NCBI GenBank assembly: GCA_016193335.1
Contig: JACPSK010000008.1
Span: 1,589-65,588, forward strand
Length of the DNA: 64,000 nucleotides
Source: Candidatus Magasanikiibacteriota bacterium
GTDB taxonomy: Bacteria > Patescibacteriota > Patescibacteriia > Magasanikbacterales > UBA922
Direction of reading: 5' to 3'
Shown: piece after piece, positions 15,269-46,855 of the stretch
How positions within the stretch are numbered: the stretch's first letter is position 1
Layout: each line of letters opens with the position of its first letter
Notes under the pieces: model-generated
What the model saw: only the letters and a program-made list of their open reading frames with translations
Database searches by the model: none
Told to the model about the DNA's origin: nothing
Program-made: the position numbers and the translations under genes

Positions 15269-16726
15269 GTGAACATCCCAAAAACCATGAGCACTCAGCA
15301 TCCGGACAATGTGCATGTCCCCTTTTTCGCCGAAGATTCCGTCTTGGGCGGTGAAGACGAAATACAAGAAGCCTTCTATGCTTATTCACATCTCAATTGC
15401 CATGAACAAATGTGGGATTTTGAAGGCAAAGAAGTGGATAATTTTGTCGTAAAAAAACTCCTGAGCAAAAATGAAATTTTCTTCAAAAAAAACAAACTCG
15501 GCCAAGACTTGCGCCTCACCTTTCGGGTGCCGAATCCTGAGGTGGAAAAAGCCGAAGCCAAAATTCTTTTGGAAACATTGGAAAGCATTCCCCGTTCTTT
15601 CGACGCGGCAAAATTGTTTTACAAACAAGACATAGCGCCTGTCTTTGAGGTCATTTTACCGATGTCAAAAAATGCCGAGGAACTCAACCGAATTTACTAT
15701 TATTACAAAGACATGGTGGCCGGCAAACAGCAGCGCAACTTGAACGGCAATGACATGACCATCGCCGAGTGGATCGGTGAATTCAAACCAGAAACAATAA
15801 ATGTCATTCCCCTATTTGAAGACAAAGAAGATCTGCTCAGAGCCCATGAAGTGGTGAAAAAATTTCTGAAAGGTAAACATATGAGCTATCAACGGGTGTT
15901 CCTCGCCCGCTCGGATCCAGCGGTAAACTACGGATCTCTAAGCGCGGTCCTACTGAATAAAATAGCTCTCCAACGCCTGCAAAAAACATCAAAAGAACTG
16001 GGCATACCGCTCTACCCCATTTTGGGAGCCGGCTCTGCCCCATTCCGAGGAAATTTAAGACCTCAAACCGTAGAGCGAATGATTTTAGGCTATCCGAGCG
16101 TGCACACCTATACTATCCAATCTTCTTTTAAGTTCGACCACCAGCCCGAAGATGTGCGAAAAGCCATAGAACACATTAACAACCACGAAAGTGGAGAAGC
16201 AATAGAAATAGACGAACCAAGAGCTCTGGAAATCATAGAACGCTACAGCGCCGAATACAGGAAACAAGTAAAAAAACTCGCTTCAGTCATCAACAAAATT
16301 TCTCCTTTCGTACCAAAAAGAAGAAAACGGAAACTCCATATAGGTTTGTTCGGATATTCTCGAGATATGGACGGCATACGTTTGCCCAGGGCCATTACCT
16401 TTACAGCGGCTCTGTATTCCATAGGAATACCTCCAGAGCTGTTAGGCCTCAATGCTATCACTCCTGAAGACAAATCTTTCATCAACTCGGTATACACAAA
16501 TTTTGAATATGACTTAAGAGACCCATTGCGCTATACTAATATACGCAGTCCTTTTATGCCGCCTGAAGTGGAACAAAGTATCCGCCCTCTCATGGAGCAC
16601 ACAGAAAGCGATGCTTATCACGCCCAGCTCATTCATCTCATGTGTAAAGGACTCCAAGAAAACGTTCATGATGAATTGAAAACTCAAATACTCGAAGCGG
16701 CGAGGATCCGCGGATATTTGGGATAA
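15269..16726 (+). CDS. ppcA: phosphoenolpyruvate carboxylase, archaeal type (PepcA)
   Basis: N-terminus NIPKTMSTQHPDN matches the hallmark IPRxMSTQHPDN of the roughly 500-aa atypical archaeal-type PEPC. Length 485 aa. GTG start. Confidence 0.65.
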   Translation: MNIPKTMSTQHPDNVHVPFFAEDSVLGGEDEIQEAFYAYSHLNCHEQMWDFEGKEVDNFVVKKLLSKNEIFFKKNKLGQDLRLTFRVPNPEVEKAEAKILLETLESIPRSFDAAKLFYKQDIAPVFEVILPMSKNAEELNRIYYYYKDMVAGKQQRNLNGNDMTIAEWIGEFKPETINVIPLFEDKEDLLRAHEVVKKFLKGKHMSYQRVFLARSDPAVNYGSLSAVLLNKIALQRLQKTSKELGIPLYPILGAGSAPFRGNLRPQTVERMILGYPSVHTYTIQSSFKFDHQPEDVRKAIEHINNHESGEAIEIDEPRALEIIERYSAEYRKQVKKLASVINKISPFVPKRRKRKLHIGLFGYSRDMDGIRLPRAITFTAALYSIGIPPELLGLNAITPEDKSFINSVYTNFEYDLRDPLRYTNIRSPFMPPEVEQSIRPLMEHTESDAYHAQLIHLMCKGLQENVHDELKTQILEAARIRGYLG

Positions 16727-21924: not shown

Positions 21925-22058
21925 AGAAAGACTTTTTTATTGGCCCTTTACATGAACTGTATCATATGATGATGAACAATTCTCGTAAAGTGCCAGGCGA
22001 ACGCGAAAAACGCTCGCCAAGGCCTCCCGAAAGAACAGGTGACAAGAGCTCTCTCCCC

Positions 22059-23510
22059 TTAACCGAAAAGCTCCTGATGGATGGCCACGTAGGCTCTTTC
22101 GTAATCTTGGGTAGCAACCCCGACCACGAATCCCACACGCGAACCGCCCACGTCCATATGATGGACCGAAGCTATGCCGGCTCTCCCCAGAGCGCCGAAA
22201 ACACGCCCAAGGATGTCCACGTTGCCTGCGGACAAACGTTCGCCCGTAACCAGGATAATCGAGAGCCCGCCCTCGATCCCAAACTTCTCCGGAGCGAATC
22301 GTTTCCTGATTGCTCTTTCAAAGAGCAAACGGCGAGAGGAATCCTCGAGCAAGTCCTCCCCGTGCACCGAGACCATCACGGCGTCTCTGCCTGTCGCCAC
22401 GTCTGAGATAGACAGACCATAGGCCGCGACCGTGGCACAGATAAGCTCGAGGCCTCCTGCCGCCACGTCAAAACCATCCTTAACGAGGTTGACGGCTGTA
22501 AGCCCTGTCACCCCGTTCATCAAGGTAACGACCGAGCCTTCGGCGTCTCCTTTGGGCACGATCCATGTCCCTGGCGCCTCAAGCTCGTCACAGCTTGCGA
22601 TGTGGATTTTCAGCCCGGGCTTCAAACGATGCACAGCGCTGATCGCGTCGGCATGGAGCGGTTGGGCGCCTGCTTCGCGCAGAACTCTGTGCCACATCGT
22701 TCCAATGGTACGAGGCTGAATGCCATACCTCCGCAAGAGCTCCGGATCTCCGGTGAAGACGCCCTGGACAGCCTTGCGTACTTCAAGCACTCCCACCTGG
22801 TCAAGCGCGCAGGCCACTATGGCGGCCGTCACGTCTGTCCCGCCAAAAGGCAAGAGGCGGTGTAGAGGCTGGGCGTCTGGGACGCTCCCCACACGGTCCA
22901 CGCCCACAAAGCCGGCCATCACAAAAGGTATCCCTCGTTTCAAACGGGCAAAAACGTTTCGAACATTGGCCTGGCAGCTCCGCCAATCCGGTATACCGTC
23001 TGCGCCAACCTCTATAGTTTCGTAGGCACTGAGAATCGGGTATCCGAGCCAGCGATGCAAAAGCTCGGTCATCATGCACTCACCAGAACCCACGGCAAAA
23101 GCCTCTGAGCCCGGTAGAGAAGCCTCGAGCTTGGCATCAATCTGAGCGCGCTGTCTTGAGAGTACGAGAAGTACTCTTTCAGGATCAAGAAGACCCCGGA
23201 AAGCAGCGCTGTAGAGATTCTCAATCAAAGTCCACAAGGTGTCTCTTGTAAAGGTGAAAGGACCATGTTCTTTATTGATCCCGTCGAAATCCTTGTTTTT
23301 GATGCCCGCGTTTGGAGATCTCAACAGTACGAGATTCACATACATGAGCAACAAAGGAGTAGCTCTGAGACCGTTTCTCGCAGGCGCAGAAGTTACGATC
23401 CCAATGTACGCAGAATCTCCTTCAGCACCCTCAACCAACCGCCGCAGAGCTTCCAAACGCTCCGGGAAACCGGCCACCTCACCACCGATCTTAAGAATTC
23501 GTGCCCCCAC
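22059..23510 (-). CDS. lysC: aspartate kinase-like amino-acid kinase with C-terminal ACT domains; GC-rich relative to neighbours
   Basis: Amino-acid-kinase core (LPFGGTDVTAAIVACALD...TGDPELL) and an ACT-like C-terminus (ILVTGERLSAGNVDILGRVFGALGRAGIASVHHMDV). GTG start. Local GC is about 60% against about 45% in flanking genes. Confidence 0.55.
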   Translation of the reverse strand: MGARILKIGGEVAGFPERLEALRRLVEGAEGDSAYIGIVTSAPARNGLRATPLLLMYVNLVLLRSPNAGIKNKDFDGINKEHGPFTFTRDTLWTLIENLYSAAFRGLLDPERVLLVLSRQRAQIDAKLEASLPGSEAFAVGSGECMMTELLHRWLGYPILSAYETIEVGADGIPDWRSCQANVRNVFARLKRGIPFVMAGFVGVDRVGSVPDAQPLHRLLPFGGTDVTAAIVACALDQVGVLEVRKAVQGVFTGDPELLRRYGIQPRTIGTMWHRVLREAGAQPLHADAISAVHRLKPGLKIHIASCDELEAPGTWIVPKGDAEGSVVTLMNGVTGLTAVNLVKDGFDVAAGGLELICATVAAYGLSISDVATGRDAVMVSVHGEDLLEDSSRRLLFERAIRKRFAPEKFGIEGGLSIILVTGERLSAGNVDILGRVFGALGRAGIASVHHMDVGGSRVGFVVGVATQDYERAYVAIHQELFG

Positions 23511-23860
23511 TGTTAATCTCCCTTCGTGAAAGTGAAGTCCGCCTGCACAGGCGCCTGGCCAGAACCAGGATACGCTCCCTCAAGCCGGCCGACCCTCCGG
23601 TACTGAGAAGGACCGGTCTGAATGTAAGCATCTCCGCTCACTACGACCTCCTTGCCTTGAACCCGAAGGTCTCGACGTTGGACAAAGAGCCTACAGCCAG
23701 TCTCTTCCCCCTGGTTCAGTCGCCAGCCGCCAAAACAAAGCATGGTCAGAGAGCCAGAATCAAAATCGCGCCGCTCAGGAAAAGCCGTTATCCTCATCTT
23801 GCTGTTTCTCCCTCTAGGTGTGTTGTCCGCAGGCCCCTGTGGCCACAAAGCCACAGAAGA
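23511..23860 (-). promoter_or_regulatory. GC-rich leader upstream of lysC; candidate lysine riboswitch (the overlapping 128-aa ORF is doubtful)
   Basis: The minus-strand leader contains TAGAGGGAGAAACAGCAAGATGAGG, which resembles the L-box 5' consensus UAGAGGUGCGAACUUCAAGAGUAUG, and a GAGCGGCGCGA element. Not verified. Confidence 0.25.
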
Positions 23861-24060
23861 TGCTGACAACAAAAATCCCCCGTTGTATCGAGGGATCATG
23901 TTTTAGTACAAAAAACACTAACCCTCAGGGAGGATTTTGCCGTTCTTCTTAGCTTCATTCTGTGTGGAACAATTATTCATAAACAAAACAATAGTATCAT
24001 GATACTTCCCTAAGTCAAGTTTCATTTATCCACTCCGCAACGCATTGCTCCGCGCTCGGA

Positions 24061-32909: not shown

Positions 32910-32997
<88 letters not shown>

Positions 32998-33037
32998 CAT
33001 TGTTAAGCCTCAACAGTTAAATACTGACATGAACTTC

Positions 33038-33236: not shown

Positions 33237-33328
33237 GCGGAGAGGGCGGGATTCGAACCCGCGATCCGGTTTTAAGGCCGGATAACACATTAGCAGTGTG
33301 CCGCTTTCGACCTACTCAGCCACCTCTC
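33237..33328 (-). tRNA. tRNA-Ser(GCU), CCA not encoded
   Basis: Reverse complement GGAGAGGTGGCTGAGTAGG...CACACTGCTAATGTGT (anticodon GCT)...GCGGGTTCGAATCCCGCCCTCTCCG, followed by GTGAGTTTTTTG. Confidence 0.85.
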
Positions 33329-33407
33329 CATTTACGGATAATTTACAATTTTTAATTTGTAAACTCAAATTATTGTTGTTCCAGTGTATCCCAAAACAAG
33401 GTTCGCG

Positions 33408-34127
33408 TCAACCCCTTGCCAGAGAAAAACCCATAACATGTAGCGCCCCTCCTTGCTCTTTCAGTGCTCTGGCCGCGGCTTGCATAGTGCTTCCGGTGGT
33501 GTATACATCATCCACTAGCAAAATGGATTTCCCCTTAGTTTCCACAGGCTTTGTAACCCGAAAAGCGTCTGCCACATTGCGCTTGCGCTCTTCCTTGGAA
33601 AGGATGGCCTGCTGTTTGGTCTTCAAAAACCTGAGCAAAAAATCCGAACGCAATTGAAAGGGCAGATGTCTATTGAAGCTCTGCGCGATAATATATGATT
33701 GATTATACCCTCTTTCGGCATAGCGGCGTTTATGCAGAGGAATCGGAACGCAATAATCTATGGGAAACAAAAAATCTGAACAGATGATCTTGGTTTCATC
33801 TATAATACGACCCAAGACTGAATTGAATTCATAAACATACGCATATTTGAACTGATGCAAAACCTGGGCCAAAAGACCTTTGGAATCATAAGGAGCGCAG
33901 GCAATCTGCTGATCCAAACAAGAATCCGCGACGCAAAAAAAACAAGGAGCACCTCTTAAGTTAGGCTCATGGCATACCGGACAGCAGAGGACAAGATGTT
34001 TATCAATTTTAAGATAGCAAGTATCACATAAGGCCAATCCTTCTTTCCCGCATCCAAGACAAAAAAGAGGAAACAAAACCTCTTTGACATACGACAAAAT
34101 AACGCGAAGTCCCTCCTTTAAAAACAT
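33408..34127 (-). CDS. comFC: ComF family competence protein (ComFC, phosphoribosyltransferase-like)
   Basis: N-terminal 4-Cys zinc finger (CLGCG...CDTC...CPVCHEP...CFFC) and a C-terminal PRTase motif LLVDDVYTTGSTM. Confidence 0.8.
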   Translation of the reverse strand: MFLKEGLRVILSYVKEVLFPLFCLGCGKEGLALCDTCYLKIDKHLVLCCPVCHEPNLRGAPCFFCVADSCLDQQIACAPYDSKGLLAQVLHQFKYAYVYEFNSVLGRIIDETKIICSDFLFPIDYCVPIPLHKRRYAERGYNQSYIIAQSFNRHLPFQLRSDFLLRFLKTKQQAILSKEERKRNVADAFRVTKPVETKGKSILLVDDVYTTGSTMQAAARALKEQGGALHVMGFSLARG

Positions 34128-34176: not shown

Positions 34177-34791
34177 TTAATCTTCCCACCAAAAACCATT
34201 TACTTTCCATTCCTCTCCCACTTTTACAATTTCAACCCTGCCTTTTCTCTGTTTGAGTTCTGTTTGAATTCCGGCAGAACCGTCTGATGACTCCGAAGAC
34301 CATTCTTGCTGAGCCTCAATGCCAATTAAAAAACGAAGATCAGATTCCTCACGAACAGAAGTACTGATAACTCGTGTGGTTACACCCTTGTATTCCACCG
34401 ACTGTTCAAGCATCTGAGTCTGGAGCCAGGCAGACATAGACAAAGTGCCAAGCTCGCTCGTGTCTGCAAGATGAGCGTTGTTATTTTGGTTTGAATAAGT
34501 ACCAAATCGTTCTACGAACAGACGGCTGAGCTGGCGGGCATACAAGGTTGGGTCTGGTTTTGAGGGAATCTGATTGGCTTCTGCGCCTTGTTCTCTAATC
34601 CCTTCCTTACTCACCAATATAGAACGCGCTTTTTGAACAGCTTCCGGAACAGTTTCTTGTTCGCTGGAAGTATTGGTCTCCTCTTGATCTTGAGGATTCT
34701 TTTTACCGTATATGATAAAAAGAACCGAAACCAAAATAAAGGCTACTATGATGCTTACTATAAGAAAAATTCTTTGTCGCAGTGTTAACAT
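34177..34791 (-). CDS. bitopic membrane protein (possible VirB8-like T4SS component by position)
   Basis: A single N-terminal TM helix (IFLIVSIIVAFILVSVLFIIY) and a roughly 150-aa extracytoplasmic domain. It is the last gene of the T4SS-like operon, so the assignment rests on position only. Confidence 0.35.
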   Translation of the reverse strand: MLTLRQRIFLIVSIIVAFILVSVLFIIYGKKNPQDQEETNTSSEQETVPEAVQKARSILVSKEGIREQGAEANQIPSKPDPTLYARQLSRLFVERFGTYSNQNNNAHLADTSELGTLSMSAWLQTQMLEQSVEYKGVTTRVISTSVREESDLRFLIGIEAQQEWSSESSDGSAGIQTELKQRKGRVEIVKVGEEWKVNGFWWED

Positions 34792-34858: not shown

Positions 34859-36745
34859 TTAAGCCTCGTCTTTATCCCCTTTCATCGAACGTTCAAATTC
34901 CTGTTTGGCGCGCTCAATGTCCAAGAGTTGTTTGGGATCAGAAGTAATTAACTGATCTTCGGTATATGAGGCTATTACTTTTATGGCGGCGTGTTTATTA
35001 CCCGCGAAAAATATTCCCTCCCCTACCGCGCTTTCCAAAAGCAGATATTTTTCTCCCTCAGTGAGCATAAAAACCCGCTGAATCATATCTATAGAAGCCG
35101 GGGACTGTCGAAGCAAAAGCTGAAGAGCAGAATTGGTTACAATGGCCTGCCCGTAAGGAGAACGCAAAAAATCGTTAACATCCTGAGTAATGGTAGTAAC
35201 GCCCAAATAATATTTTCTGCATCGTTTAACCAAAGCATAAATAAATTTGGCGCTGTCTTCGTGTTGCATGAGCCACCAAGCTTCATCAATGATTAAGATG
35301 CGTTTTTTCCGTTCAGAACGGACGATATTCCATATATAATTAACGAGAGTGTAAATGGCCATGGGTCTGAGCTCATCTTCCAAATCGCGGACACTGAAGA
35401 TCACTAGCTGGTTGTCCACGTTCACATTAGTCGGAGAATTGAAAAGGCCGGCAAAAGTGCCGAGAGTATATTTTTCCAGCTTCAAAACCAAATCCTCTGC
35501 TCCTTCCATCCCTTCGAGGATATCCAATAAATCCTGCATGATGGGAGCTTCAAGATTTCTCAAATCAGAATTCGGAGTTATATCTTTTTTAGCATAGGTT
35601 TCAAGAAGCGCTCTGTCCAAAATAGAATCTTCACTGGCAGAAAGAGTCCCAAACATGATACGAAGCAGACCTTTTAAGGTAATGACAGCGCTTCGTATGA
35701 TATCTTCCACCGAAGCCTGGCCACCCACCGGCTTGGGCAAATCAAAAGGATTGACCTTGCTCTCAGAGGCCAAAGAAATACTGATATAGGTTCCACCAAC
35801 CGCTTCAGCTAGATGCAAATATTCCATTTCAGGATCTATAACAATAATATCAATACCCATCATCAGACTGCGGAGAACCTCCAATTTTACGGCGTAGGAT
35901 TTGCCGGCGCCCGAAGTGGCGAACACAACCATGTTGGCGTTTTGTAAAGAAAAACGATCGAATAAAATAAGACTGTTATTGTGCCTGTTTATACCGTACA
36001 AAATGCCATTATCACTGGTAAGTTCCGAAGAAATAAAGGGAAAAGACGCCGCTATGGGCGAAGAGTTCATATTAAAAGCTATGGTAAGCTCGTCTATGCC
36101 CAAAGGCAGAGTTGATGTAAAGCCTTGTTCGGCCTGAAATAAAACATTTTTCGTGTAAATCAATTTTGACCCGAACAGATTTTCTATGTCTTCTGAAGTT
36201 TTGTCCAGTTCTTCTTTGTCCTGAGCGTATATGGTTACATAAAAAGCGAACTGAAAAAAATGCTCGACCCCTTGGGTCAGATCATCCCGAAGCTGTTCTA
36301 TATCCCGCAAGGCCGTCTCCCGAATCGGGTCTCTCGGAGCCCCTTTCTCGGCGTCAGAACTTATCTGAGCCTCGAGAGCTCCCACTTTTTTCTTGAGTTG
36401 TTTGAGGATAATCGCGGAATTGACCGGATAAAAAAACATGCTTACATCCATGGTAATATTCAAATTCAAAACAGGAGCGCTCCACCCGACCGCGATATAA
36501 CGGGGATAAGTAACCACAAAAATCGTCCGCAAAAAGGTATTGCCAAGCTGAACAAAAGTAGATTCCACTTTAAAAGCAGAAGGCGCGATAAGATCCTGGA
36601 TAGCCACGGTTCCTTCGCGGTACACCCGTTCTTCTTCCAAGCTGATCAATTGTTGTTCGATGTCTTCGCTTTGTTTTTTTCTCCTTCTGAAAGAACCTCT
36701 TTTTTCAGGAGATCCCTGACCGAAGGATACTGGTTTAAACGGCAT
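34859..36745 (-). CDS. virB4: type IV secretion VirB4/TrbE/CagE-family ATPase (ATPase body)
   Basis: Walker A MVVFATSGAGKSYAVK followed by DIIVIDPEMEY, and Walker B RILIIDEAWWLM...TTITQDVNDF. The N-terminus IAPSAFKV...GNTFLRTIFVVTYPRY matches the VirB4 linker region. Confidence 0.75.
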   Translation of the reverse strand: MPFKPVSFGQGSPEKRGSFRRRKKQSEDIEQQLISLEEERVYREGTVAIQDLIAPSAFKVESTFVQLGNTFLRTIFVVTYPRYIAVGWSAPVLNLNITMDVSMFFYPVNSAIILKQLKKKVGALEAQISSDAEKGAPRDPIRETALRDIEQLRDDLTQGVEHFFQFAFYVTIYAQDKEELDKTSEDIENLFGSKLIYTKNVLFQAEQGFTSTLPLGIDELTIAFNMNSSPIAASFPFISSELTSDNGILYGINRHNNSLILFDRFSLQNANMVVFATSGAGKSYAVKLEVLRSLMMGIDIIVIDPEMEYLHLAEAVGGTYISISLASESKVNPFDLPKPVGGQASVEDIIRSAVITLKGLLRIMFGTLSASEDSILDRALLETYAKKDITPNSDLRNLEAPIMQDLLDILEGMEGAEDLVLKLEKYTLGTFAGLFNSPTNVNVDNQLVIFSVRDLEDELRPMAIYTLVNYIWNIVRSERKKRILIIDEAWWLMQHEDSAKFIYALVKRCRKYYLGVTTITQDVNDFLRSPYGQAIVTNSALQLLLRQSPASIDMIQRVFMLTEGEKYLLLESAVGEGIFFAGNKHAAIKVIASYTEDQLITSDPKQLLDIERAKQEFERSMKGDKDEA

Positions 36746-36758
36746 AGAAACTTTTTCT

Positions 36759-37457
36759 TTATAATCCCCTCTCCACCTGCAAATCCTCCACTGAACTCAT
36801 CGTCTCGCCATAAGAAATATCAGGATTAAAGGTGGAATAATATAACTCTATGAGCGCCTGGGTATCCAGCTGGACAGCCGTAACGCCCACGCTCGAGAGT
36901 CCGGAAATAACTTGACGTACTCTCATGTCCAAGTCTTCTTTGCGTTGTCTGAACCGGTCTTCTTTGAGACGGATACTCGCCATTGGTCTGAGCACGTCTT
37001 TTGTTCTGCTAAAAAAACTTTTTTTTGTGTTGGAGAGCGGATCATATGGAACGACCACATAATATCGTTTGGTCATAATCTGGCCGATATCCACCAATTC
37101 TTTCACAAAGGCTCGGTAATCCGCTATCTGTATGCGTAAAAGTTCATTTTTTTGTTTTGCTTCGATGCTCGCCAATTCTTCGAGATAGGGCCTAATCTGC
37201 AGACGCCTGGATTGAACCACAATTTGCAAAGGAAAATCTATGGAATTCAAAAAACCCACATACGAAGAAATAAGCGCGTTTTGTTCGTCCTCCGACTTCA
37301 AAGCGAAATTTATGCTTGAGGTTAAAAGCACGGCCCGTGTTGTCCCGTCTTTTAAAACAAGCACGCCCTCTTTTATTTCAGAAATGGGTAGATGAGTTTT
37401 GGTAGCCGGACGTTTGGCTTTCTTGGTCTTTTTTTTCTTACTTTTCATATGATACAA
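36759..37457 (-). CDS. VirB4 N-terminal-domain-like protein (separate ORF; possible split or frameshifted VirB4)
   Basis: LPISEIKEGVLVLKDGTTRAVLLTSSINFALKSEDEQ...FPLQIVVQSRR resembles the CagE_TrbE_VirB N-terminal domain. The ORF ends 14 nt before the ATPase ORF in the -1 frame. Confidence 0.45.
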   Translation of the reverse strand: MYHMKSKKKKTKKAKRPATKTHLPISEIKEGVLVLKDGTTRAVLLTSSINFALKSEDEQNALISSYVGFLNSIDFPLQIVVQSRRLQIRPYLEELASIEAKQKNELLRIQIADYRAFVKELVDIGQIMTKRYYVVVPYDPLSNTKKSFFSRTKDVLRPMASIRLKEDRFRQRKEDLDMRVRQVISGLSSVGVTAVQLDTQALIELYYSTFNPDISYGETMSSVEDLQVERGL

Positions 37458-37460: not shown

Positions 37461-37895
37461 CTAAACAGTGTCTTCAGGCTTATAGAAACCGCCCGTGTTG
37501 GCCAAAAGCGCCAAGTCTCTGATGCGTTCACGTTTCACCGGTTCTTTCGTAGGGGTTTCAGAAAGCTCTGAAGTAAAATTTTGTTCTCTCAAAAAATTTA
37601 AGTCCTTATCAGTGTAGACTTTGTTCCAAATTCGAAGGGAAGGTTTGCGCAAAGTTTGAAGTATATTCAATAAAAAATAATGGAAATTCTGGCCATTGAT
37701 TTTAACGAACGCGAATAACAAAGCCGCGCCTCCCACGACCGCAAGAGTAAAGATGAATAATGACAAATCACCATAACGAAAACTGAGAAAAATCACAACG
37801 CCGGCAACCAAAAGAATGACAAATTGGCGTATGGTGATGGGTCCAAAAATCTTGTCTTCAACATCTATAAATTGTGGAACAACAAATTGCTGCAT
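37461..37895 (-). CDS. small 2-TM protein, PrgI/VirB3-like by architecture and position
   Basis: MQQFVVPQFIDVEDKIFGPITIRQFVILLVAGVV followed by a second TM helix. It lies immediately upstream of the VirB4 ORFs, as PrgI and VirB3 do. Confidence 0.4.
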   Translation of the reverse strand: MQQFVVPQFIDVEDKIFGPITIRQFVILLVAGVVIFLSFRYGDLSLFIFTLAVVGGAALLFAFVKINGQNFHYFLLNILQTLRKPSLRIWNKVYTDKDLNFLREQNFTSELSETPTKEPVKRERIRDLALLANTGGFYKPEDTV

Positions 37896-37903: not shown

Positions 37904-39166
37904 CTAGGTTCTCAAAGCTTTATGCACTTCAAGAAAGGCAAAACATTCTTCAAGGCTCGGAGATTGTCCGGCACTTTCTTTGGAGAGAATCTGAGATAAA
38001 CCGGTACCTTCATTGATGGCCCTTACGAGCAGGGCCTGATATTGTCTGAACAAAAAATTCTGGAACCATGCTCTGCGCGCTTCAAGATAAAGCAAAAAAG
38101 ATTCTCCTTTCAAAGCTTCAAATTTGGCCGAAACCTGCTTTGCCGCGCTTTCAGGGTCCTCGGCAAGGCGCCGAAAATCCATCAAAGAAAAACCGAACAT
38201 TTCTTCAACCGGACCCGTCGCCTTTGATATGGGCTCGACGGGCGGGGTCATATCATGGAGAGATGCGGAAGGAACGCCCACAGCTCGAAGCTGTCCCGAG
38301 GAGAGAGATCGGTGTCCTCGGGACCTGGCACCTTGTTTCAACAAAACAGAGGCCAAGTCATGGGTCAAGGTTTCCACGGGTTCAGGCGGTTTCGGAGCCT
38401 GAGCAAGGGCGATATCTCTGAATATATCTTTCACCGGCGTAGTGGTAGACAAGGCCTGAGAAGTTTGATTAAGCGCAAGAGCTTCTGACTCCACTTTAAG
38501 TTTTGATTTTTTAGAAATATTTGGTTTTAAGGCTTTTAGCTCCTCTTGCCGAAAAAAAGCCAGCGTTTTCTTTTTTTCTTCCATCAGAAGCGTAAGACGC
38601 GCGGATTGTTCTTTGGTGAGCCCCAAGCCCCCGCTCGCGAAAGGCGCCACTGCGTATTCATGAAACTGCGCTTTGTCTCGCACGCCTTTAAGAAAAGAAA
38701 GAACAAGTGAATGCGCTCGGGCCTGAACTTCTGAAGACAAAACCACAGGAAATTCCTGAAATATTCCCCTCAGCGCGTAATCCGGACCGATTTTGTCGCT
38801 TAATTCTTTATCAAGCAGTTCTTCGTGGGACAAAGCCTCATCCAAAAGCGACGCATGGTCTTCGGCTTTCCAAACAGTTTTAGGAGGCGTCCGCTTGGTT
38901 TTAATAAGCAAAGGAGAATTCCGTTTCTCAATCTTTTTTACGCTTGTCTGAGACTGGACCGGCTCTGCGCGAGTCTGCGTAGATGTAGATTTTGCATTCT
39001 GTGTCGGTTCAGCAAGCGTCTTAGAGTCAAAATTCTCCTCTTTGAATTTCAAAGATGTCGGGTTCAAAGTGCTGGCCTGCTTAAGGCTACTCAAAGAAAC
39101 ACGGATTGTGCTTCCATCCGTTTTTTTTACCAATACGCTCGGCCCTGTTACTGCTGGTGTTGGCAT
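37904..39166 (-). CDS. hypothetical protein (T4SS-like operon member)
   Basis: 420 aa with no TM helix and an S/T/K-rich, probably disordered N-terminal third. Translationally coupled to its neighbours (8-nt gap). Confidence 0.4.
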   Translation of the reverse strand: MPTPAVTGPSVLVKKTDGSTIRVSLSSLKQASTLNPTSLKFKEENFDSKTLAEPTQNAKSTSTQTRAEPVQSQTSVKKIEKRNSPLLIKTKRTPPKTVWKAEDHASLLDEALSHEELLDKELSDKIGPDYALRGIFQEFPVVLSSEVQARAHSLVLSFLKGVRDKAQFHEYAVAPFASGGLGLTKEQSARLTLLMEEKKKTLAFFRQEELKALKPNISKKSKLKVESEALALNQTSQALSTTTPVKDIFRDIALAQAPKPPEPVETLTHDLASVLLKQGARSRGHRSLSSGQLRAVGVPSASLHDMTPPVEPISKATGPVEEMFGFSLMDFRRLAEDPESAAKQVSAKFEALKGESFLLYLEARRAWFQNFLFRQYQALLVRAINEGTGLSQILSKESAGQSPSLEECFAFLEVHKALRT

Positions 39167-39170: not shown

Positions 39171-40262
39171 TTATATGTTTACTCCTGTAAAAAAGGATTC
39201 ATCCCATTTGAAGGTCTGACTTTTCTCATCAAAATATATCACCTCATCTATGGACTGAAGCCCCCGCGCTTTGAGAGCGTCCAGGAAAGTGGTCAAAAGT
39301 TCTACATGCCTGGCCTTATTCAAATCAACTTTTTTCATGAGAATAAACAAAAGTTTCGTGATATAGGCCTCTTCTTTTTGTGTAACATCCAACCAATGCA
39401 CCGCCTGTTCATAATCTTCGAGCCATTGTTCTATGCCTTTTTCATCGGCTTCGTATAAATTCTGAAGATAATATTCATCCACGTTCTTCTTCTCTCCCTC
39501 TTGCTTTCGTTCATAGCCCGCCGGCACGCCGTCTTCTATCTCTCTCCAAATAAAACCACCCTGCAACCCGTAATAGAGGGTCATTATTTTTTCGAGCCAG
39601 GCACGCGTGTCTGTGTCTTGTCTCGAGACTTCCATCATGTTATTCATAAACTCAGGAACTTTGCTCTCTATGGAAGCAGTGTAATAATTGTCGAACATAT
39701 CCAGCCATTCGCCTATCTTATACACAGCTTTACCTTCTGTCCCCAACAGCGTATGATTTCTCGCCATGATTCTCGCGAATAGCAAAGAATCATCCCACAT
39801 GCCTCTCACATAGGCCAAACGCCTGAAATAATCTTGGACATGAGTGTAAATGGGAATCTCCCAAATACAAGCCTTGAGTAAAAAGCGCGTGCCGAGGAGA
39901 AAGAGCTGGCGCTTGGCAGAAATATAATCAAAATGCATCCAGGCGAAAAAGGTGTAGAAGCGTTCGTAAAAATCCTGGTCTTCTTCGGAAAAATCCGCGA
40001 ATACCAAACTCCCGTCGCTCCACCCTTCGAGTGAACGCAAAATATCATCCACCACTCCCTCATAATAAAACTGAAACTGATGCAAAGTTTTTATCAAGTG
40101 ATACTTGGTGTCTGTTTGAAGTAAATCAGGTCTTTGCACGTTTTTCCAGCTCATGGAGTAATATTCAGAGCCTCGATCCTGGCAAGCGTCAAGAATAGCC
40201 TGCTGTTCTTCATCAGTTTTGGAAGGGTAGAGATAACGAATTGTTTGGGCTAGAGAAAACAT
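39171..40262 (-). CDS. hypothetical acidic W/Y/F-rich protein (T4SS-like operon member)
   Basis: 363 aa, no TM helix, many aromatic residues, and gaps of only 17 nt and 4 nt to its neighbours. Confidence 0.4.
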   Translation of the reverse strand: MFSLAQTIRYLYPSKTDEEQQAILDACQDRGSEYYSMSWKNVQRPDLLQTDTKYHLIKTLHQFQFYYEGVVDDILRSLEGWSDGSLVFADFSEEDQDFYERFYTFFAWMHFDYISAKRQLFLLGTRFLLKACIWEIPIYTHVQDYFRRLAYVRGMWDDSLLFARIMARNHTLLGTEGKAVYKIGEWLDMFDNYYTASIESKVPEFMNNMMEVSRQDTDTRAWLEKIMTLYYGLQGGFIWREIEDGVPAGYERKQEGEKKNVDEYYLQNLYEADEKGIEQWLEDYEQAVHWLDVTQKEEAYITKLLFILMKKVDLNKARHVELLTTFLDALKARGLQSIDEVIYFDEKSQTFKWDESFFTGVNI

Positions 40263-40278: not shown

Positions 40279-43200
40279 CTATCTTTCGTCTTCGAGTCCA
40301 AGAACTTCAGCCGGGGGTTTATAACTGGGCGGAGCAGACAGGCCAGGACCAAATTTACCTCCTCGGACCATGCCAATAAGTTCATCCACCGTTGTAATTT
40401 TCTTTTTCTCAACACTTCCTGTTGTTTCGTCATAAATCGGAATGAGAAGCTCCATGGCGCCTTTTTTAAGGGCTTCGGGCTGAGACATACCAGTGGTTGC
40501 CGCCATAGTGAGCAAAAAGTCGGCCATATTGGAATGCATTTTGGGAACATACAATTCTCGCACAATATTGCGAGCGGTGAGTGCCTCCTGAATCTGGGCT
40601 TGCTGAGCTTTGCTTTTGCCGGCCATAGCCCTCTTGTATTGATTCCCGCTCTTGCGCATCCAAGTAGACTGTGCGCCCTTCGAAGCGCCAACCTTAAAGA
40701 ATCCTGTTTTCTCATCTTTGTATTCATAAAGTTGATCCGAGGCCGCGATGCCGGCAAGACTCTTTATGTATCTGCCCGTGGTGCCGGACCAGGTTCTGAA
40801 ATCTATAATACCATTGCGCATAATGGCATCATCATGTGTGCGCAAACGAGTCGCAACTTGGCCATTGTCTTCGTCCAAGTCCATGGTAGCATGAGGATGA
40901 GCTCCGGCGCGAAGCCTGGTGTCTGTTTTGTTTGCGTCACTCAATACATTGTCGCTTGCCATACCCACGCCAGAAGGAACATACAATTTTTCCCCGCCAC
41001 CGATATCATGCATCAAAGCCCAGCCAGCGTTTTCTCCATGGCCTTTTTTGATAGCATCATTGCGCAAGTTGCCCAAAAACTGCATGGATGACTGATTGGA
41101 TCGAATCACGTCCGTGTATTTGTCCATTACTTCTCTGCGTCTGGCTTCCACTTCCGCGTTTTCTCCTTCCAAAAGCAAATCCAAAAGATCTTGCTGAGCG
41201 CCGGTAAGAACTCTGTCTTGCTCTACCAGAGAATCCATCACCTCTTTTTTCAAATCTGAATTATTCACGACATTACCTTTGGTATCCACGAACTTCCCTG
41301 TTTTCATGCCCGAATACAAACCGGCGACATCCATGCCCAATTTTTTCGTGCCTGCGTCCAATACCTCTGAAACAGCCACATTGTTGCGAGCGAAAGTCAA
41401 ATCTCCTCCTGAGGCAAACATCATTTCAACGTCTCTTATTTTGTCTTTGCTAAATTCCATGTCTTTCCATCCCAAGACATTTCCTATCTGTCCGCGGGCT
41501 TCTGAATTTGACATGACCGAAATGATAACATCATCCACCCAAGATTCGTTGAAACCGCGCTTAAAGAGCCCCATAAGCGCGGCCCTGTCCGCGTCTTGGA
41601 GATCTCCGGACTGCACTTTATCAACAGCTTTTAAAAGCATATCCCCGGCGCTGGCCACAAAATTGCCGTAAGACATCTCGGAAAAACCCTTTTCAAATTC
41701 TTCGATAAGCTCGGTCAAAGTGGTTTTTGGCGTATCCACGCCTCGCTTGTCCCAGATCACCCGCTGTTCCGCGTCACTCAAAACCAAATTGTGCCTATAT
41801 TTGTATACGCGATTGGCTTCCACTGCCTGAGACGCCGCGACTCCATACTGCCAGGCGGTAGCGCCGCCCGCGTCCATATCTGCTGCCACCTTATCGAGCT
41901 TTGCGGCCTCTTTTAATCTCCCTTGTTCCGTAAGATTTTGGGCGATGCCTCTTACTGTTCCAGAATCTCCTTTGCGAATCGCGTCAGCCTGAACACGCAA
42001 ATCTTTCTTAAGACTATCGAGCTCGGTCCTGTCACCGGTTTTGTTTTCCAATAAATTCGCTATTTCAGTCTGCCCCTTTGTAATGGCGTCCGCAAGAGTG
42101 TCTATATCCCCTTTATTTTGAGCTATGACAGCTTCCAAAGCCTTTCTTTGATCCTTAGACTCTTCATCTTCGCCCGTGATCTGCTCCAAATCTTTTTGAT
42201 GCTGTCTGTTCTGTCGTTCCAAACGCTCTTTTTCCGACTTATTTGTATCTTGTTCTGTGGCCTTAGTCATCAAAGAGTCAGAAGTAATTTTAATTCCTTT
42301 AGTGAGTTCTTCGATTCTCTTTCTGGTTGTTTCGTCTGTATAGGCTCCGGATTCCACCCTGCCTGCCGTGGCATCCGCCTCGGTGGCGGCTGCCAATTTT
42401 TCAGAAATTCTCGTTTGAAGCAAAGTCTCTTCTTGCTTGCTGAGTCTATCAGAACTCAATTTGGCAAGAGACTGCTCTTCGAGAAATTCATCATAGGTCA
42501 TCTTACTCGGCGCTGTCCAAGATTTGGCTTTTATAGTGTCTGCCTGCGCTTGTTTTACCGCAAGATTTTCCATCAGCCTGCTTTCATACAAGCTTCTGCC
42601 GTCTCCTGCGTCAAGATCGGTCTGCCCTAATTCGCCGGATATAATCTCTGCTTCAGCTATCTCTCTCCCCAGAACCGCCCTTCTCTCTGGGGTCATCTCT
42701 GATGGATCCAAGGTACGTCTTTTTTGAGCAATCTGCGCGCCCACTTTATCGCGAGCTTCTTGGCCGGCCGCTTGATTGTAAGCCGCTTGAAGCGGCGCCA
42801 ATTGTTCATCTGTTTGATCCATTTGCTTTCTGGCGGCCTCTAATTTACTCTGATTGTCGACTATATCCTCGCCCGCGTCAATCCCTGCTTGAGCCTCTAC
42901 AGCTGTTGCGTTGAAATTTGACTTTTTGAACTCCAAAGCGTCTATCTCTGCTTGCAATTGTTTCGCAGTCATTTCTTTTCCATCCTTGCCTTTGGCTGTG
43001 GTCAAAACATCTCCGGAAAGCATTGCCTGTTTTTGAGCTTCAAGTTCTGAAACTTCACCTTCAATCTTTTCACGTTCAACAGGGTCGGTGACACCGTCCC
43101 GCTCCTGGCGCAGAGTTTTGAGTTTGCTCTCTATGCTCTTGGCCAAATCACCGCTTCTCAAATCTCTGAGCTGTTCATTTATTTTATCCATGTCTTTTTG

Positions 43201-45498
43201 CACCGGCTCCAGCTGTTTTTGCACAGACTGAAAATTGCCGCTCACGCGGAGCCTGGCATCAGCCTGCATTCTCTTTTCTTTGTTCGATTCTTTCTCTCCG
43301 GTAAGGGTATGATCTTGAATACGCTCCATCATGGTGCCGGCCGCGCTTTCATAAGACATTTTGCCAGTCTTCACATTGTACTTGAGCCTGGGCTTGCTCA
43401 AGACTTCGTTTTTGCCCCTGCCCTCGTAGTCTTTGTCTTTGGCTTCTGAACGCATTTTTTCCGCCGCGAGCCAGCCGCGCTCTATACGGTCTTGAGCTTC
43501 ACGGCCCGCATATATATCGCCGAAGAAACCAACCCCTTTGCCGTCTTTTGTTTTGTTACCCATCATTTTTCCAATCCAGCGGGTTCCAAAAAGACCTCTC
43601 GTGCCCATGCCAACTTGCATAACCGAATTCCATGGTTTTGCGATAAGATTTTTGATACCCTGAGTGCCGGGAATGCCCAAAATATTAGTGCCTTCTTTCA
43701 TGGCCATAAACTGACCACCGGCTTCTGAACCCACACGTTTCCATAAAATTTCTTTTCTCACTTCGGCCTGCTTCTTGGATTTCTCAGTTTGCTTTTCAAG
43801 TTCAATGCCCGAACGAGAGAAGCGTCCCAAAAGACCGCCGGAAAATGAACTCTTAGCCACTTTTTCTTGTTGTTTGATTTCCTGATCCAAGGCCGCCAAA
43901 TCCTCTTGATTTATGCCAATGGTGGCGTCTTGCAATATCTGCCGCTGTTCAGCGATTTCTTTATCCAAGCTTTGTGTCTGTTCCGGGGAAATATCTGAAC
44001 CAAGCTTTTGCTTGACGCCTTCCAGACGGTCTATCTCTCTCATCGCATTTTGCTGAATCGCTCCTTTTTCGTCTCCCTTTGCCTCGCCTGCTTCTTTTCG
44101 TTTGTACAATTTGTCCAAAGATTCTCTAGCCGCTTCTCCTTTTGGAGACATTCTCATGCCCAGCTCGCGGTAGGAGCCCACTATGGAATGCCCTATATTC
44201 TTAAAACGATTCGCGAATTTCTCTCCGCCAAGTACTGGCATTTTCCAGAGAGCAGCTTTGCCGCCCTTCTTGGCCACGGACCAAGCTCCTTTTGCCGCTC
44301 CGCCCACCATCCATCTGCCGAGCGCGTAGCCACTCGCGATAGTGCCAATTTTTTTGCCAAAATCCACTGCTTTGTTCACCAAATTCGCTCCGGCCGCTCC
44401 GGATTCACTGACTTCTTTTATGCCAATATACAGAAAGACAATGGCTATAAAAAAATTGGCCATGTTTTCCCAGGTGGAAACCTTGGAAAGAGAAAGAGAA
44501 AATTCTTCGTCTGTGTTCACTTGTTGAAGTGGAATAACGGTATCTCCTGTAAAATCTCTTTGTATTATTTCTCCGTGGCCGAGAGTTGCGAAAGCAAGCC
44601 AAAGAAAAAATACCATCAAAGGCGCCACCATGACCTCTTGGCTGAATTCCTTCCACCAACGCTGGGCATAATGCTGGGTATTGGGCAAAACTTGGGTTAC
44701 ATACGCAATGGGCGAAAGTATAATGAGCGTCCAAAGCAAAACAACCCGAAGGAGCATAATCACCACATAGGCCGCCAACGTTACCATGGCTATGAGAGCA
44801 AAGACAAAAGCGATAAAAGCGCCGCCCAATAATTCTATCTGCAGATTATCCGCGTTCGAAGCGTCTTGCCCGCCCACGAATCTCATCATCTCATCAAGCT
44901 TGAACATGTTTATGATGTTGCCTCCTGCAGTGGCGGAAATGGCGTTGAGGAAGGTAATGGTAAAAACATGAGCAGCGTCTATAAAAAGCTGAGCGATAAC
45001 ATTGCTGAAATTTATAAAAACAGCGGCGAGAATGAGCTTTACCAGGCTCTTTTTCCATTCGTATTGTTCTATGCCAAGAATGGTGGCAAAGGCTATAACA
45101 AGCAAAATCACCACGAAAAACATGTTCGCCACGTCTCGGACCATCACCCAGCCCAATTTTACCACCGAGGCATTGATAAAATCATTGTAACTGGCCAAGG
45201 TGATAAAAAATCTGAGCAAAAACACGGTCATGCCAATGGCAAGCCTTGAAAGGGTCAAAAGAAGCCAGGTCATTCCCGCGATCAGCCCGTCCGCGATACT
45301 GTCTAAAATCGCGAAAGAAGGAAGCGCGAAAAAAACGCCTGCAACCAAAATAAAAATACCAAAAAAAAGCAAGAATTTTTTCTCCTGCAAGCGTTTCGGC
45401 AGTATATGGCCGCTCAGCTGTTTGATACGAGATACTATACTATGCAAAAAGGTTCGCATGCTTTTCGCGATAGAAAGATTATGCTTAGAGTATAGCAT
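40279..45498 (-). CDS. giant (1739 aa) polytopic membrane protein with a long coiled-coil and C-terminal globular region; VirB6/TrbL-like candidate
   Basis: At least six to eight hydrophobic helices in the first 400 aa. A roughly 600-aa E/K/Q/A-rich coiled-coil segment follows, then a roughly 600-aa C-terminal region of unknown fold. First gene of the operon. Confidence 0.5.
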   Translation of the reverse strand: MLYSKHNLSIAKSMRTFLHSIVSRIKQLSGHILPKRLQEKKFLLFFGIFILVAGVFFALPSFAILDSIADGLIAGMTWLLLTLSRLAIGMTVFLLRFFITLASYNDFINASVVKLGWVMVRDVANMFFVVILLVIAFATILGIEQYEWKKSLVKLILAAVFINFSNVIAQLFIDAAHVFTITFLNAISATAGGNIINMFKLDEMMRFVGGQDASNADNLQIELLGGAFIAFVFALIAMVTLAAYVVIMLLRVVLLWTLIILSPIAYVTQVLPNTQHYAQRWWKEFSQEVMVAPLMVFFLWLAFATLGHGEIIQRDFTGDTVIPLQQVNTDEEFSLSLSKVSTWENMANFFIAIVFLYIGIKEVSESGAAGANLVNKAVDFGKKIGTIASGYALGRWMVGGAAKGAWSVAKKGGKAALWKMPVLGGEKFANRFKNIGHSIVGSYRELGMRMSPKGEAARESLDKLYKRKEAGEAKGDEKGAIQQNAMREIDRLEGVKQKLGSDISPEQTQSLDKEIAEQRQILQDATIGINQEDLAALDQEIKQQEKVAKSSFSGGLLGRFSRSGIELEKQTEKSKKQAEVRKEILWKRVGSEAGGQFMAMKEGTNILGIPGTQGIKNLIAKPWNSVMQVGMGTRGLFGTRWIGKMMGNKTKDGKGVGFFGDIYAGREAQDRIERGWLAAEKMRSEAKDKDYEGRGKNEVLSKPRLKYNVKTGKMSYESAAGTMMERIQDHTLTGEKESNKEKRMQADARLRVSGNFQSVQKQLEPVQKDMDKINEQLRDLRSGDLAKSIESKLKTLRQERDGVTDPVEREKIEGEVSELEAQKQAMLSGDVLTTAKGKDGKEMTAKQLQAEIDALEFKKSNFNATAVEAQAGIDAGEDIVDNQSKLEAARKQMDQTDEQLAPLQAAYNQAAGQEARDKVGAQIAQKRRTLDPSEMTPERRAVLGREIAEAEIISGELGQTDLDAGDGRSLYESRLMENLAVKQAQADTIKAKSWTAPSKMTYDEFLEEQSLAKLSSDRLSKQEETLLQTRISEKLAAATEADATAGRVESGAYTDETTRKRIEELTKGIKITSDSLMTKATEQDTNKSEKERLERQNRQHQKDLEQITGEDEESKDQRKALEAVIAQNKGDIDTLADAITKGQTEIANLLENKTGDRTELDSLKKDLRVQADAIRKGDSGTVRGIAQNLTEQGRLKEAAKLDKVAADMDAGGATAWQYGVAASQAVEANRVYKYRHNLVLSDAEQRVIWDKRGVDTPKTTLTELIEEFEKGFSEMSYGNFVASAGDMLLKAVDKVQSGDLQDADRAALMGLFKRGFNESWVDDVIISVMSNSEARGQIGNVLGWKDMEFSKDKIRDVEMMFASGGDLTFARNNVAVSEVLDAGTKKLGMDVAGLYSGMKTGKFVDTKGNVVNNSDLKKEVMDSLVEQDRVLTGAQQDLLDLLLEGENAEVEARRREVMDKYTDVIRSNQSSMQFLGNLRNDAIKKGHGENAGWALMHDIGGGEKLYVPSGVGMASDNVLSDANKTDTRLRAGAHPHATMDLDEDNGQVATRLRTHDDAIMRNGIIDFRTWSGTTGRYIKSLAGIAASDQLYEYKDEKTGFFKVGASKGAQSTWMRKSGNQYKRAMAGKSKAQQAQIQEALTARNIVRELYVPKMHSNMADFLLTMAATTGMSQPEALKKGAMELLIPIYDETTGSVEKKKITTVDELIGMVRGGKFGPGLSAPPSYKPPAEVLGLEDER

Positions 45499-45545: not shown

Positions 45546-45563
45546 AACCCGGCTTGGCCGGGT
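45541..45563 (-). terminator. intrinsic terminator of asnS
   Basis: Minus-strand AACCCGGCCAAGCCGGGTTTTTTT; the stem abuts the stop codon. Confidence 0.7.
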
Positions 45564-46855
45564 TAGGGTGTAATTCTGTTGAGCATTCTTGGAAAAGGAA
45601 TAGTCTCGCGTATGTGATGGATTCCTCCAACCCAGCGAGTCATGCGTTCTATGCCAATACCGAATCCGCAGTGAGGCACTGATCCGTAACGCCTCAAATC
45701 CAAATACCATTCAAAAACCGAAACATCAAGACCGGCCTTGTTTATGTTGTCCAAAAGAGTTTTATAATCGTCCTCGCGCTGAGACCCGCCCACTATTTCG
45801 CCAAAACCGCGGGACGCGAGAATGTCGGCATTCAAAACCATGTCTTTTTTCTCAGGATGAGCTTTCATGTAAAAAGGTTTTATTGCTTTGGGCCAGTTTT
45901 TTACGACCACCGGCGCGTCGGAATCCTCGGTAAGCAGCACTTCGTCCTCTGCTCCCAAATCTTCTCCGAATTGTATGGAAGAACCCCTTTTTTGCAGCTT
46001 GGCTATGGCTTCTTCATATTCATAATGCACAAAAGAAAGATTAAGAATCGCCTGAAGCTCTGCAGTGTTTCGTTCCAAAATAGCAAGCTCGGGGCCCCCG
46101 TGTTTGAGCGCGTACGCGATCATGTGTTTGATGCTCTCTTCTTGAATACGAAGGCTTTCTTCATGTTCGATGAATGCCATTTCCGGATTCAAAGACCAAA
46201 ATTCAGTGAGATGCTTGCGGGTCTTGGATTTTTCAGCGCGAAAATTGGGGCAGAGATCATAGACTCTCCCAAAAGCCATTGCCATGGCTTCGAGATACAG
46301 CTGGCCGTTTTGCGTAAGATACGCGGGACGGCCAAAATAATCCACTTCAAACAAATCCGTGGTGCCTTCGCAGGCGTTCGGGGTAAAGGTGGGCGTATCG
46401 AGCTCTATGTATCCCTTGCTATTGAAGTAATCTTGAAAACCGGTTTTTACAATATGTCGTAAACGCAGAGCGGCCCATTGTTTCTGAGACCTAAGCCAGA
46501 GATGTCGGTTGTCCATGAGAAATTCCGGCCCGTGTTCTTTTTTGGTAATGGGATATTCTTCGGCTTTGTGAACCAAAATCACCTGAGTAACCTGCAATTC
46601 ATATTCTGATTCTTTTTTTGGATGCTTTGAAACTCTGCCTGTAACGACAAGAGAAGATTCTTGAGTGGCTTCTTGAACATTTCCCCAAGTCTTTTCATCC
46701 ACCTGCTGTTTGGGAACCACGGCCTGCGCGAATCCCGACCCGTCGCGAAGCTCGAGAAAAGCAATGGATCCCGAAGATCTTTTGTTGTAGAGCCAGCCTT
46801 TAATTTCTACTTCTTTGCCGACTTGTCCGGCCATGTCTCTTATGTATGTACTCAT
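45563..46855 (-). CDS. asnS: asparagine--tRNA ligase (class IIb AsnRS/AspRS-like)
   Basis: N-terminal OB fold MSTYIRDMAGQVGKEVEIKGWLYNKRSSGSIAFLELRDG and class II core motifs (FRAEKSKTRKHLTEFW, GFGIGIERM). ATG at 46855 is preferred; the track start at 46939 adds 28 non-conserved residues. Confidence 0.8.
   Translation of the reverse strand: MSTYIRDMAGQVGKEVEIKGWLYNKRSSGSIAFLELRDGSGFAQAVVPKQQVDEKTWGNVQEATQESSLVVTGRVSKHPKKESEYELQVTQVILVHKAEEYPITKKEHGPEFLMDNRHLWLRSQKQWAALRLRHIVKTGFQDYFNSKGYIELDTPTFTPNACEGTTDLFEVDYFGRPAYLTQNGQLYLEAMAMAFGRVYDLCPNFRAEKSKTRKHLTEFWSLNPEMAFIEHEESLRIQEESIKHMIAYALKHGGPELAILERNTAELQAILNLSFVHYEYEEAIAKLQKRGSSIQFGEDLGAEDEVLLTEDSDAPVVVKNWPKAIKPFYMKAHPEKKDMVLNADILASRGFGEIVGGSQREDDYKTLLDNINKAGLDVSVFEWYLDLRRYGSVPHCGFGIGIERMTRWVGGIHHIRETIPFPRMLNRITP

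Follow-up and report, generated by a model that had tools for sequence, protein, structure and literature searches.

A giant VirB6 family member of a Candidatus Magasanikiibacteriota bacterium carries a conserved head domain on a coiled-coil tether

What is the function of a 1,370-residue hydrophilic tail on a channel subunit of a type IV secretion system (T4SS)? The question is raised by a giant gene in a 64,000-nucleotide (nt) stretch of contig JACPSK010000008.1 (Candidatus Magasanikiibacteriota assembly GCA_016193335.1), hereafter the window, to which all positions refer. The gene, a single open reading frame (ORF) of 1739 codons plus stop (positions 40279–45498, minus strand; open throughout), is the first of an eight-gene T4SS cluster. 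A preliminary description, made from the sequence alone, had proposed a T4SS-like operon headed by this gene, a VirB6-type product with a very large extension, and a lineage-specific role in surface contact or adhesion. We find that the product is a VirB6 family member by fold and gene context, that its tail after amino acid (aa) 366 ends in a conserved head of two lobes reached through a coiled coil of variable length, and that the second lobe is a separate soluble protein in some related genomes. We favour, with a modest degree of confidence, a reading in which the protein is a VirB6 translocon or stalk-base subunit of a chromosomal, monoderm-type T4SS, equipped with a cytoplasmic, tethered substrate-docking or substrate-processing head.

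Other genomes hold split versions of the gene, from which it might be argued that the giant ORF is a misassembly or a sequencing fusion of several genes; this explanation is refuted, and its probability is vanishingly small, because independent assemblies carry the fused protein. In particular, P0001, from an independent assembly, is 99.9% identical to the giant protein over 1697 aa, and at least 14 GTDB species genomes encode fused orthologues, as do the related loci L001–L003. The split proteins carry additional termini of their own and are therefore not frameshift artefacts but a distinct lineage. Homologue alignments mostly begin at Met14 (MRTFLHS…, position 45459), and on this pattern the true start is probably Met14, giving a product of 1726 aa. 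The giant protein has 449 homologues at E ≤ 1e-3, and a pattern scan with the N-terminal-domain alignment as query, run over GTDB genomes at one per species, finds the N-terminal domain encoded at 225 loci; the best 80 of these 225 come almost all from Candidatus Magasanikbacteria or Patescibacteria, with identities of at most 59%. As judged from these matches, the family is restricted to Patescibacteria, chiefly Magasanikbacteria.

The assignment of the N-terminal domain to VirB6 rests on sequence evidence that is weak and structural evidence that is clear. The giant protein itself has no Pfam match at E ≤ 1, TrbL included; the sole library match on the hydrophobic N-terminus, MFS_MOT1, is below threshold and was rejected. 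Among relatives, PF04610 (TrbL) is matched by 5 of 12 close ones (best E 6.6e-6), and of the 120 listed homologues, 20 carry precomputed PF19590 (TrbL_3) or PF04610 assignments, P0001 (PF19590) among them. A profile of the N-terminal domain has no match among PDB sequences. Structure comparison, using an AlphaFold2 (AF2) model of aa 14–800 with a mean predicted local distance difference test score (pLDDT) of 69.9 overall and of 70–90 within the hydrophobic domain, matches the N-terminal domain to the TrwI (VirB6) fold, at a sequence identity of 13%, and it is on this modelled fold that we call the domain VirB6. Genes for a PrgI family protein, a TrsD-like protein, and a VirB4 ATPase lie 2.4–5.4 kb downstream of the giant gene on the same strand. 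The fold match, the weak TrbL matches in relatives, and these neighbours uphold the proposed VirB6-type subunit with a very large extension, which also satisfies the definition of the 'extended VirB6' class.

The chain is divided into nine regions, all encoded on the minus strand, for which we give mean identities against 10 full-length homologues. A basic N-terminal tail and first hydrophobic segment (aa 14–63, positions 45310–45459; 19% identity) end at an AxA-type site (…ALPSFA, directly followed by ILD) that is kept in homologues; the segment appears signal-peptide-like and is predicted to be a signal peptide or a signal anchor. The VirB6-fold hydrophobic domain follows, comprising helices S2–S8 (aa 64–366, positions 44401–45309), of which the last spans aa 343–365; at 57% identity it is the most conserved part of the protein. 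In total, eight hydrophobic segments lie within aa 42–365, and all are helical in the AF2 model. Next come a Lys/Gly-rich juxtamembrane segment modelled with low confidence (aa 367–450, positions 44149–44400; 41% identity), a helical bundle with pLDDT >90 over aa ~453–553 (aa 451–590, positions 43729–44148; 25% identity), a Gly-rich disordered hinge that is mostly deleted in relatives (aa 591–665, positions 43504–43728; 23% identity), and a conserved charged module of 95 aa (aa 666–760, positions 43219–43503; 42% identity), which contains AQDRIERGWLAAEKMRSEAKD… and then a beta hairpin. The next 450 residues form a variable, heptad-like coiled-coil spacer (aa 761–1210, positions 41869–43218) that cannot be aligned between relatives (14% identity). 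The protein ends in the head: lobe A (aa 1211–1342, positions 41473–41868; 53% identity), which is helical and contains the motif GLFKRGFNESWVDD and the invariant residues D1322 and D1323, and lobe B (aa 1343–1739, positions 40282–41472; 38% identity), which is a stand-alone soluble protein in at least seven related loci.

A crude heptad scan rises above the 99% null at aa 746–786, 839–913, 1021–1064, 1119–1152, and 1198–1228. Across 22 relatives, the spacer ranges in length from 147 to 945 aa and the head stays constant at ~520 aa; the length of the coiled coil that separates the head from the membrane varies freely.

This anatomy alters several features of the preliminary description and leaves others standing. 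Its polytopic N-terminus is present as seven hydrophobic helices, refined here by the signal-peptide-like segment with an AxA site that precedes them. A coiled coil is present where ~600 aa had been proposed, and extends over ~450 aa (aa ~761–1210), the remainder being the Lys/Gly-rich segment, bundle, hinge, and charged module; likewise, a C-terminal region without recognisable motif exists, at ~520 aa (aa ~1211–1739) rather than ~600. That this region would lack recognisable motifs is borne out by empty searches of Pfam, NCBIfam, PHROGs, PDB sequences, and BFVD, and that it would be specific to this lineage by the confinement of the family to Patescibacteria, mostly Magasanikbacteria.

The head is confidently modelled and strongly conserved. 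An AF2 model from a 43-sequence alignment (pLDDT 93.6; predicted template-modelling score 0.89) shows a single body that is helical for the most part and has a few small beta hairpins. Neither the whole protein nor its three parts give anything meaningful against Pfam, NCBIfam, and PHROGs; the head has no match among PDB sequences by phmmer or by profile; and a Foldseek comparison of its model with the viral BFVD structures yields nothing at E ≤ 0.001, with template-modelling scores (TM-scores) of at most 0.14. The head is likely a new fold, as compared with the PDB by sequence and with BFVD by structure. An exhaustive phmmer search of 1.84 billion cluster representatives returns only 93 clusters that match the head at E ≤ 1e-3, and the matches inspected among these are giant VirB6 proteins or their split forms. 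An iterated profile recovers the head in 81 of 120 family members, including members with C-termini that seem unrelated by BLAST.

Specifically, twelve head residues are invariant in fused forms (P1257, D1322, D1323, W1344, R1479, H1487, E1489, A1514, K1524, H1536, R1576, and G1680), and ten are invariant when the stand-alone forms, at 20–25% identity, are also included (W1344, K1353, F1369, R1479, H1487, E1489, A1514, K1524, H1536, and R1576). The alignments indicate that the head is under purifying selection and nearly as conserved as the VirB6 domain, and the invariant polar residues look like those of a binding or catalytic site, unlike a fast-evolving surface tip. HNH/His-Me nuclease, HUH relaxase, and lytic transglycosylase were considered for the H-x-E…HPH motifs and rejected, having no family or fold support. 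Four stand-alone lobe-B homologues (P0137, P0143, P0152, and P0166) have His/Gly-rich N-termini, for example HGGHGHGGGAGG and HHPHHDEHGHDNHDNGHGHD; together with the invariant His, Glu, and Asp residues, these N-termini hint at a metal site.

The boundary between the two lobes is defined by natural splits of the gene. The VirB6 gene of L004 and L005 (1226–1255 aa) stops after lobe A, and a lobe-B gene of 685–698 aa follows within a few bases, before the usual operon. The same layout, with a 615–757-aa gene directly after the VirB6 gene, is found in L007, L044, L066, and L080, and in L085 lobe B likewise lies outside the VirB6 ORF. The fission point falls exactly between the final lobe-A helix and Trp1344, such that lobe A stays on the VirB6 protein. 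None of the stand-alone lobe-B proteins (0 of 27) has a signal-peptide-like or transmembrane-like stretch; the maximal 12-residue hydropathy in their first 70 aa is ≤1.5, versus 3.1 for the signal segment of the giant protein.

On which side of the membrane does the head lie? Family-wide, the 35 aa preceding the last hydrophobic helix contain on average 1.8 Lys+Arg and 4.0 Asp+Glu, the 80 aa following S8 contain 12.0 Lys+Arg and 4.1 Asp+Glu, and the N-terminal tail contains 5.8 Lys+Arg and 0.5 Asp+Glu. The charge step across S8 is the classical positive-inside signature and would mark S8 as a real membrane span and the tail as cytoplasmic. Signal-less lobe B must meet lobe A somewhere, which also favours a cytoplasmic tail, as does the lack of a signal peptide in both conserved soluble neighbours (363 and 420 aa). 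The C-terminus of Agrobacterium VirB6 was reportedly mapped as cytoplasmic by Jakubowski in 2004 and by Judd in 2005. Because of the charge step and the signal-less split lobe B, the tail is, as far as sequence features can tell, probably cytoplasmic rather than surface-exposed.

Several points weigh against this placement and against the function that we build on it. The topology is read from hydropathy and charge statistics, and in TrwI of R388 just two N-proximal helices (alpha1 and alpha2) cross the membrane, the others forming a periplasmic dome (PMC9259494; PMC12857230), an architecture that makes hydropathy-based VirB6 topologies unreliable. By analogy, if the giant protein assembled as in R388 and S8 were kept in the dome, the tail would begin outside the cell. 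In principle, the T4SS itself might export the stand-alone lobe-B proteins. Some family members of ~1,000 aa have no detectable head, and the head is thus not universally required. Finally, the substitution of the head for a coupling protein, which forms part of the mechanism below, is a step that we infer.

In the mechanism that we favour, the last hydrophobic helix (aa 343–365) would really span the membrane and bring the chain back into the cytoplasm, and the tails of a presumed VirB6 pentamer would hang there, close to the VirB4/TrsD ATPase. Lobe A would serve as a dock for lobe B, and lobe B would be the working part, with a site, either for binding or for metal-dependent catalysis, at which substrate is captured or processed before it passes to the channel. 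The coil would be a flexible tether that enlarges the capture radius (450 aa fully extended would reach ~65 nm). The head would thereby do the job of a coupling protein or a relaxase, neither of which is found nearby among the larger ORFs scanned. The substrate may be DNA or protein, and the comF linkage of the cluster suggests DNA as a candidate. A narrower and more tentative proposal, which we hold with considerable doubt, is that lobe B, tethered or docked, is an enzyme or receptor of new fold, probably metal-dependent, and acts as the substrate gate in place of coupling protein and relaxase.

An exported tail would lead to a very different machine, in which the coiled coils of the pentamer form a stalk of tens of nm through wall and S-layer and the head contacts the host as an adhesin, a pore former, or a substitute for the pilus or VirB5. 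Several observations are in keeping with such a stalk: VirB6 of R388 is mostly periplasmic and bears the pilus tip protein VirB5; TraG of the F plasmid, listed as the counterpart of VirB6 in the F system, is an extended VirB6 with a C-terminal domain that acts outside the cytoplasm; no VirB5 or VirB2 gene is recognised in the cluster; and surface fibrils typically have coiled coils of variable length. The organism, moreover, is probably an epibiont (PMC12102498). The strong positive-inside charge step past the last hydrophobic helix argues against a stalk, as do the separate lobe B without Sec signal in 27 of 27 cases and the conservation of the head, which retains invariant polar residues and is not the most variable part of the protein. 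We therefore regard the stalk as possible but rather improbable. The surface contact or adhesion module of the preliminary description is not supported by the charge step and the signal-less lobe B (27 of 27), both of which speak for a cytoplasmic site, with the R388 dome leaving an outside location possible, and the diversifying selection expected of a surface protein is not borne out by a head of 38–53% identity with invariant polar residues, next to a coil of 14%. A cytoplasmic topology together with a housekeeping fold was to count against the preliminary reading, and this applies only in part: a cytoplasmic side is probable, and no housekeeping family shares the fold.

The free, soluble lobe B that several lineages encode beside the channel gene would also suit a substrate or effector of the T4SS that waits on the channel subunit until its release into the host cell, by proteolytic cleavage in fused forms and directly in split forms. 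The enzyme-like set of invariant residues would befit a toxin or a host-modifying effector, and protein export has been proposed for the Saccharibacterial T4SS (PMC10633639). Such a cargo is nonetheless unlikely: most genomes encode the head covalently joined to seven hydrophobic helices and a 450-aa coil, without a cleavage motif that could be recognised; there is no evident immunity-like partner; and effectors are usually lineage-variable rather than syntenic core genes, whereas 81 of 120 family members have the head. It is very unlikely that the tail is a structural strut that binds no ligand, catalyses nothing, and does no more than oligomerise or position the machine, as a nucleoid or cell-pole anchor would, with the invariant residues serving folding or lobe packing. 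The missing enzymatic family match, the unconstrained coil length, and the relatives with no detectable head would agree with a strut; however, R, H-x-E, K, H, R, and D-D stay invariant down to ~20–25% overall identity across fused and split forms, and charged and His residues conserved in this way more usually mark an active or binding site than serve packing.

The position of the giant gene as the first of a T4SS-like operon is supported by its flanks. A strong terminator-like hairpin (positions 45546–45564, minus strand; 8-bp stem with 6 GC pairs, followed by a T-run) lies after asnS, directly upstream of the giant gene, and all seven downstream genes run in its direction, 3–67 nt apart. 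Sigma-70-like upstream motifs were dropped as promoter candidates, the 20 promoter-like matches versus 18.5 expected being at chance level. The eight-gene order recurs in L001–L003 and L005, whose giant proteins are ~33–48% identical, and in most GTDB loci.

The second and third genes, all genes of the cluster being on the minus strand, encode soluble proteins without family match, of 363 aa (positions 39171–40262; related loci have a 324–509-aa gene there) and of 420 aa (positions 37904–39166; synteny conserved). We had considered that the 363-aa gene co-occurs only with head-bearing VirB6, and dropped the idea: relatedness confounds the pattern, and a similar-sized gene occupies the position in all layouts examined. 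The fourth gene encodes a PrgI family (VirB3-like) protein of 144 aa with two hydrophobic helices (positions 37461–37895; PF12666, 41.4 bits versus a cut-off of 27). The fifth gene encodes a TrsD-like protein of 232 aa that resembles the VirB4 N-terminal domain (positions 36759–37457; NF041427 E 1.6e-5, below its cut-off), and PF26593 (TraC-like) is on record for its syntenic counterparts. The sixth gene encodes a VirB4 ATPase of the CD1110 (monoderm) family (positions 34859–36745; 628 aa; NF045971, 353 bits versus a cut-off of 325). VirB4 is thus split over two genes, with the 232-aa product covering model positions ~87–237 and the 628-aa product covering ~292–893, and this two-gene coverage (positions 34859–37457) agrees with the published remark that TrsD resembles the VirB4 N-terminus (PMC12102498).

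Between VirB4 and ComF, in conserved synteny, lies a gene for a 204-aa protein with a single N-terminal transmembrane helix and ~170 aa past it (positions 34177–34791). It has no Pfam, NCBIfam, or PDB-sequence match, and we infer that it occupies the expected position of a VirB8-like gene. PDB sequence searches gave no match for any of the three unannotated neighbours (363, 420, and 204 aa). The final gene encodes a ComF family protein of 239 aa (positions 33408–34127), in the same layout in L001–L003 and L005; it is directly followed, at the end of the cluster, by two tRNA-Ser genes (anticodons TGA and GCT; positions 32911–32998 and 33237–33329, minus strand). No VirB5 or VirB2 is recognised among the cluster genes, and no coupling protein (type IV coupling protein, T4CP) or relaxase family match is found among the scanned larger ORFs of the window; both coupling protein and relaxase are generally absent or unlinked in the Patescibacterial T4SS type (PMC12102498; PMC10633639).

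The wider context is core chromosome, with asnS, recO, secY, ribosomal-protein-sized genes, dnaE, pheST, and smc. In L003 (positions 1–7122 of that locus) and L004 (positions 1–4674), another giant gene, with no Pfam match on record, lies upstream of the VirB6 gene, where the window has asnS and recO; the encoded proteins are >3051 aa and 1557 aa long, both cut by contig ends. G+C content reaches 0.55 at positions 22001–24000, versus 0.42–0.48 in most of the window; this island, which may be foreign DNA or an unusual gene, contains a 483-aa ORF (positions 22059–23510, minus strand) with a weak amino-acid-kinase family match. An archaeal-type phosphoenolpyruvate carboxylase is encoded at positions 15269–16726 on the plus strand (PF14010, E 3e-191), which is unusual given the minimal metabolism expected.

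In a Saccharibacterium, the only genetically tractable Patescibacterium, the T4SS is essential for epibiotic growth (PMC10633639), and the extra domains of 'extended' VirB6 proteins have, according to a recent review, no known role (PMC12857230). The head gives a handle on two questions, namely the role of extended VirB6 domains and cargo selection by the Patescibacterial T4SS, in the form of a confidently modelled, conserved domain, a short list of invariant residues, and split versions with a soluble lobe B and a predicted dock in lobe A. If lobe B is indeed a substrate gate, cargo, which may be DNA, would be selected or processed in a way not known before, in a T4SS on which episymbionts depend. 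The Patescibacterial T4SS is already published; the tethered head, which the texts searched do not mention, probably has a new fold.

One of the nearest known systems is that of R388, in which VirB6, TrwI, is ~340 aa long and has no tail. Like the giant gene, TrwI (PDB 7O3V; PF04610) is encoded with VirB3-like and VirB4 genes, and the pentameric channel base that it forms is presumed for the giant protein as well. The giant protein differs in being only 13% identical to TrwI and in missing every Pfam TrbL threshold, and its host is a monoderm without VirB5 and VirB7–10, unlike the R388 system.

TraG of the F plasmid likewise fuses a channel subunit to a large accessory domain that adds function, the C-terminal domain of TraG being a mating-pair-stabilisation and entry-exclusion domain. 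Neither the whole giant protein nor its parts have a Pfam or NCBIfam match to TraG_N or to the TraG C-terminal domain, and identity with F-type TraG was rejected for lack of a family match. The two also differ in that the C-terminal domain of TraG acts outside the cytoplasm whereas the tail of the giant protein lies more likely inside, and in envelope type.

With the Patescibacterial T4SS described earlier (Quiñonero-Coronel et al. 2025, PMC12102498; Wang et al. 2023, PMC10633639), the cluster shares the gene set of monoderm-clade VirB4, TrsD, PrgI, and VirB6, a chromosomal location, and the absence of a relaxase. The T4SS loci of class ABY1 co-localise with comF (PMC12102498), and the cluster in the window shows the same linkage. 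In text searches, the two papers, in which VirB6 was found by hidden Markov model (HMM), make no mention of tail, coiled coil, head, or fission, and no paper in the literature collection searched joins VirB6, coiled-coil, and Patescibacteria.

The 'extended VirB6' class is defined as a VirB6 core with large central or C-proximal hydrophilic domains (PMC12857230), and the giant protein shares this core and these hydrophilic C-proximal regions with RvhB6 of Rickettsiales, VirB6-4 of Anaplasma, and the 700–900-aa VirB6 proteins of Gram-positive integrative and conjugative elements (ICEs) of the MPF-FA type. No sequence relation of the head to the RvhB6, VirB6-4, or MPF-FA extensions is found among the 93 clusters matched in the 1.84 billion representatives. 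The MPF-FA extensions are described as unstructured (PMC12857230), and Anaplasma VirB6-4 has unusual C-terminal extensions (PMC7648143). Unlike those extensions, the tail of the giant protein ends in a compact, conserved, folded domain of 520 aa that is reached through a coiled coil.

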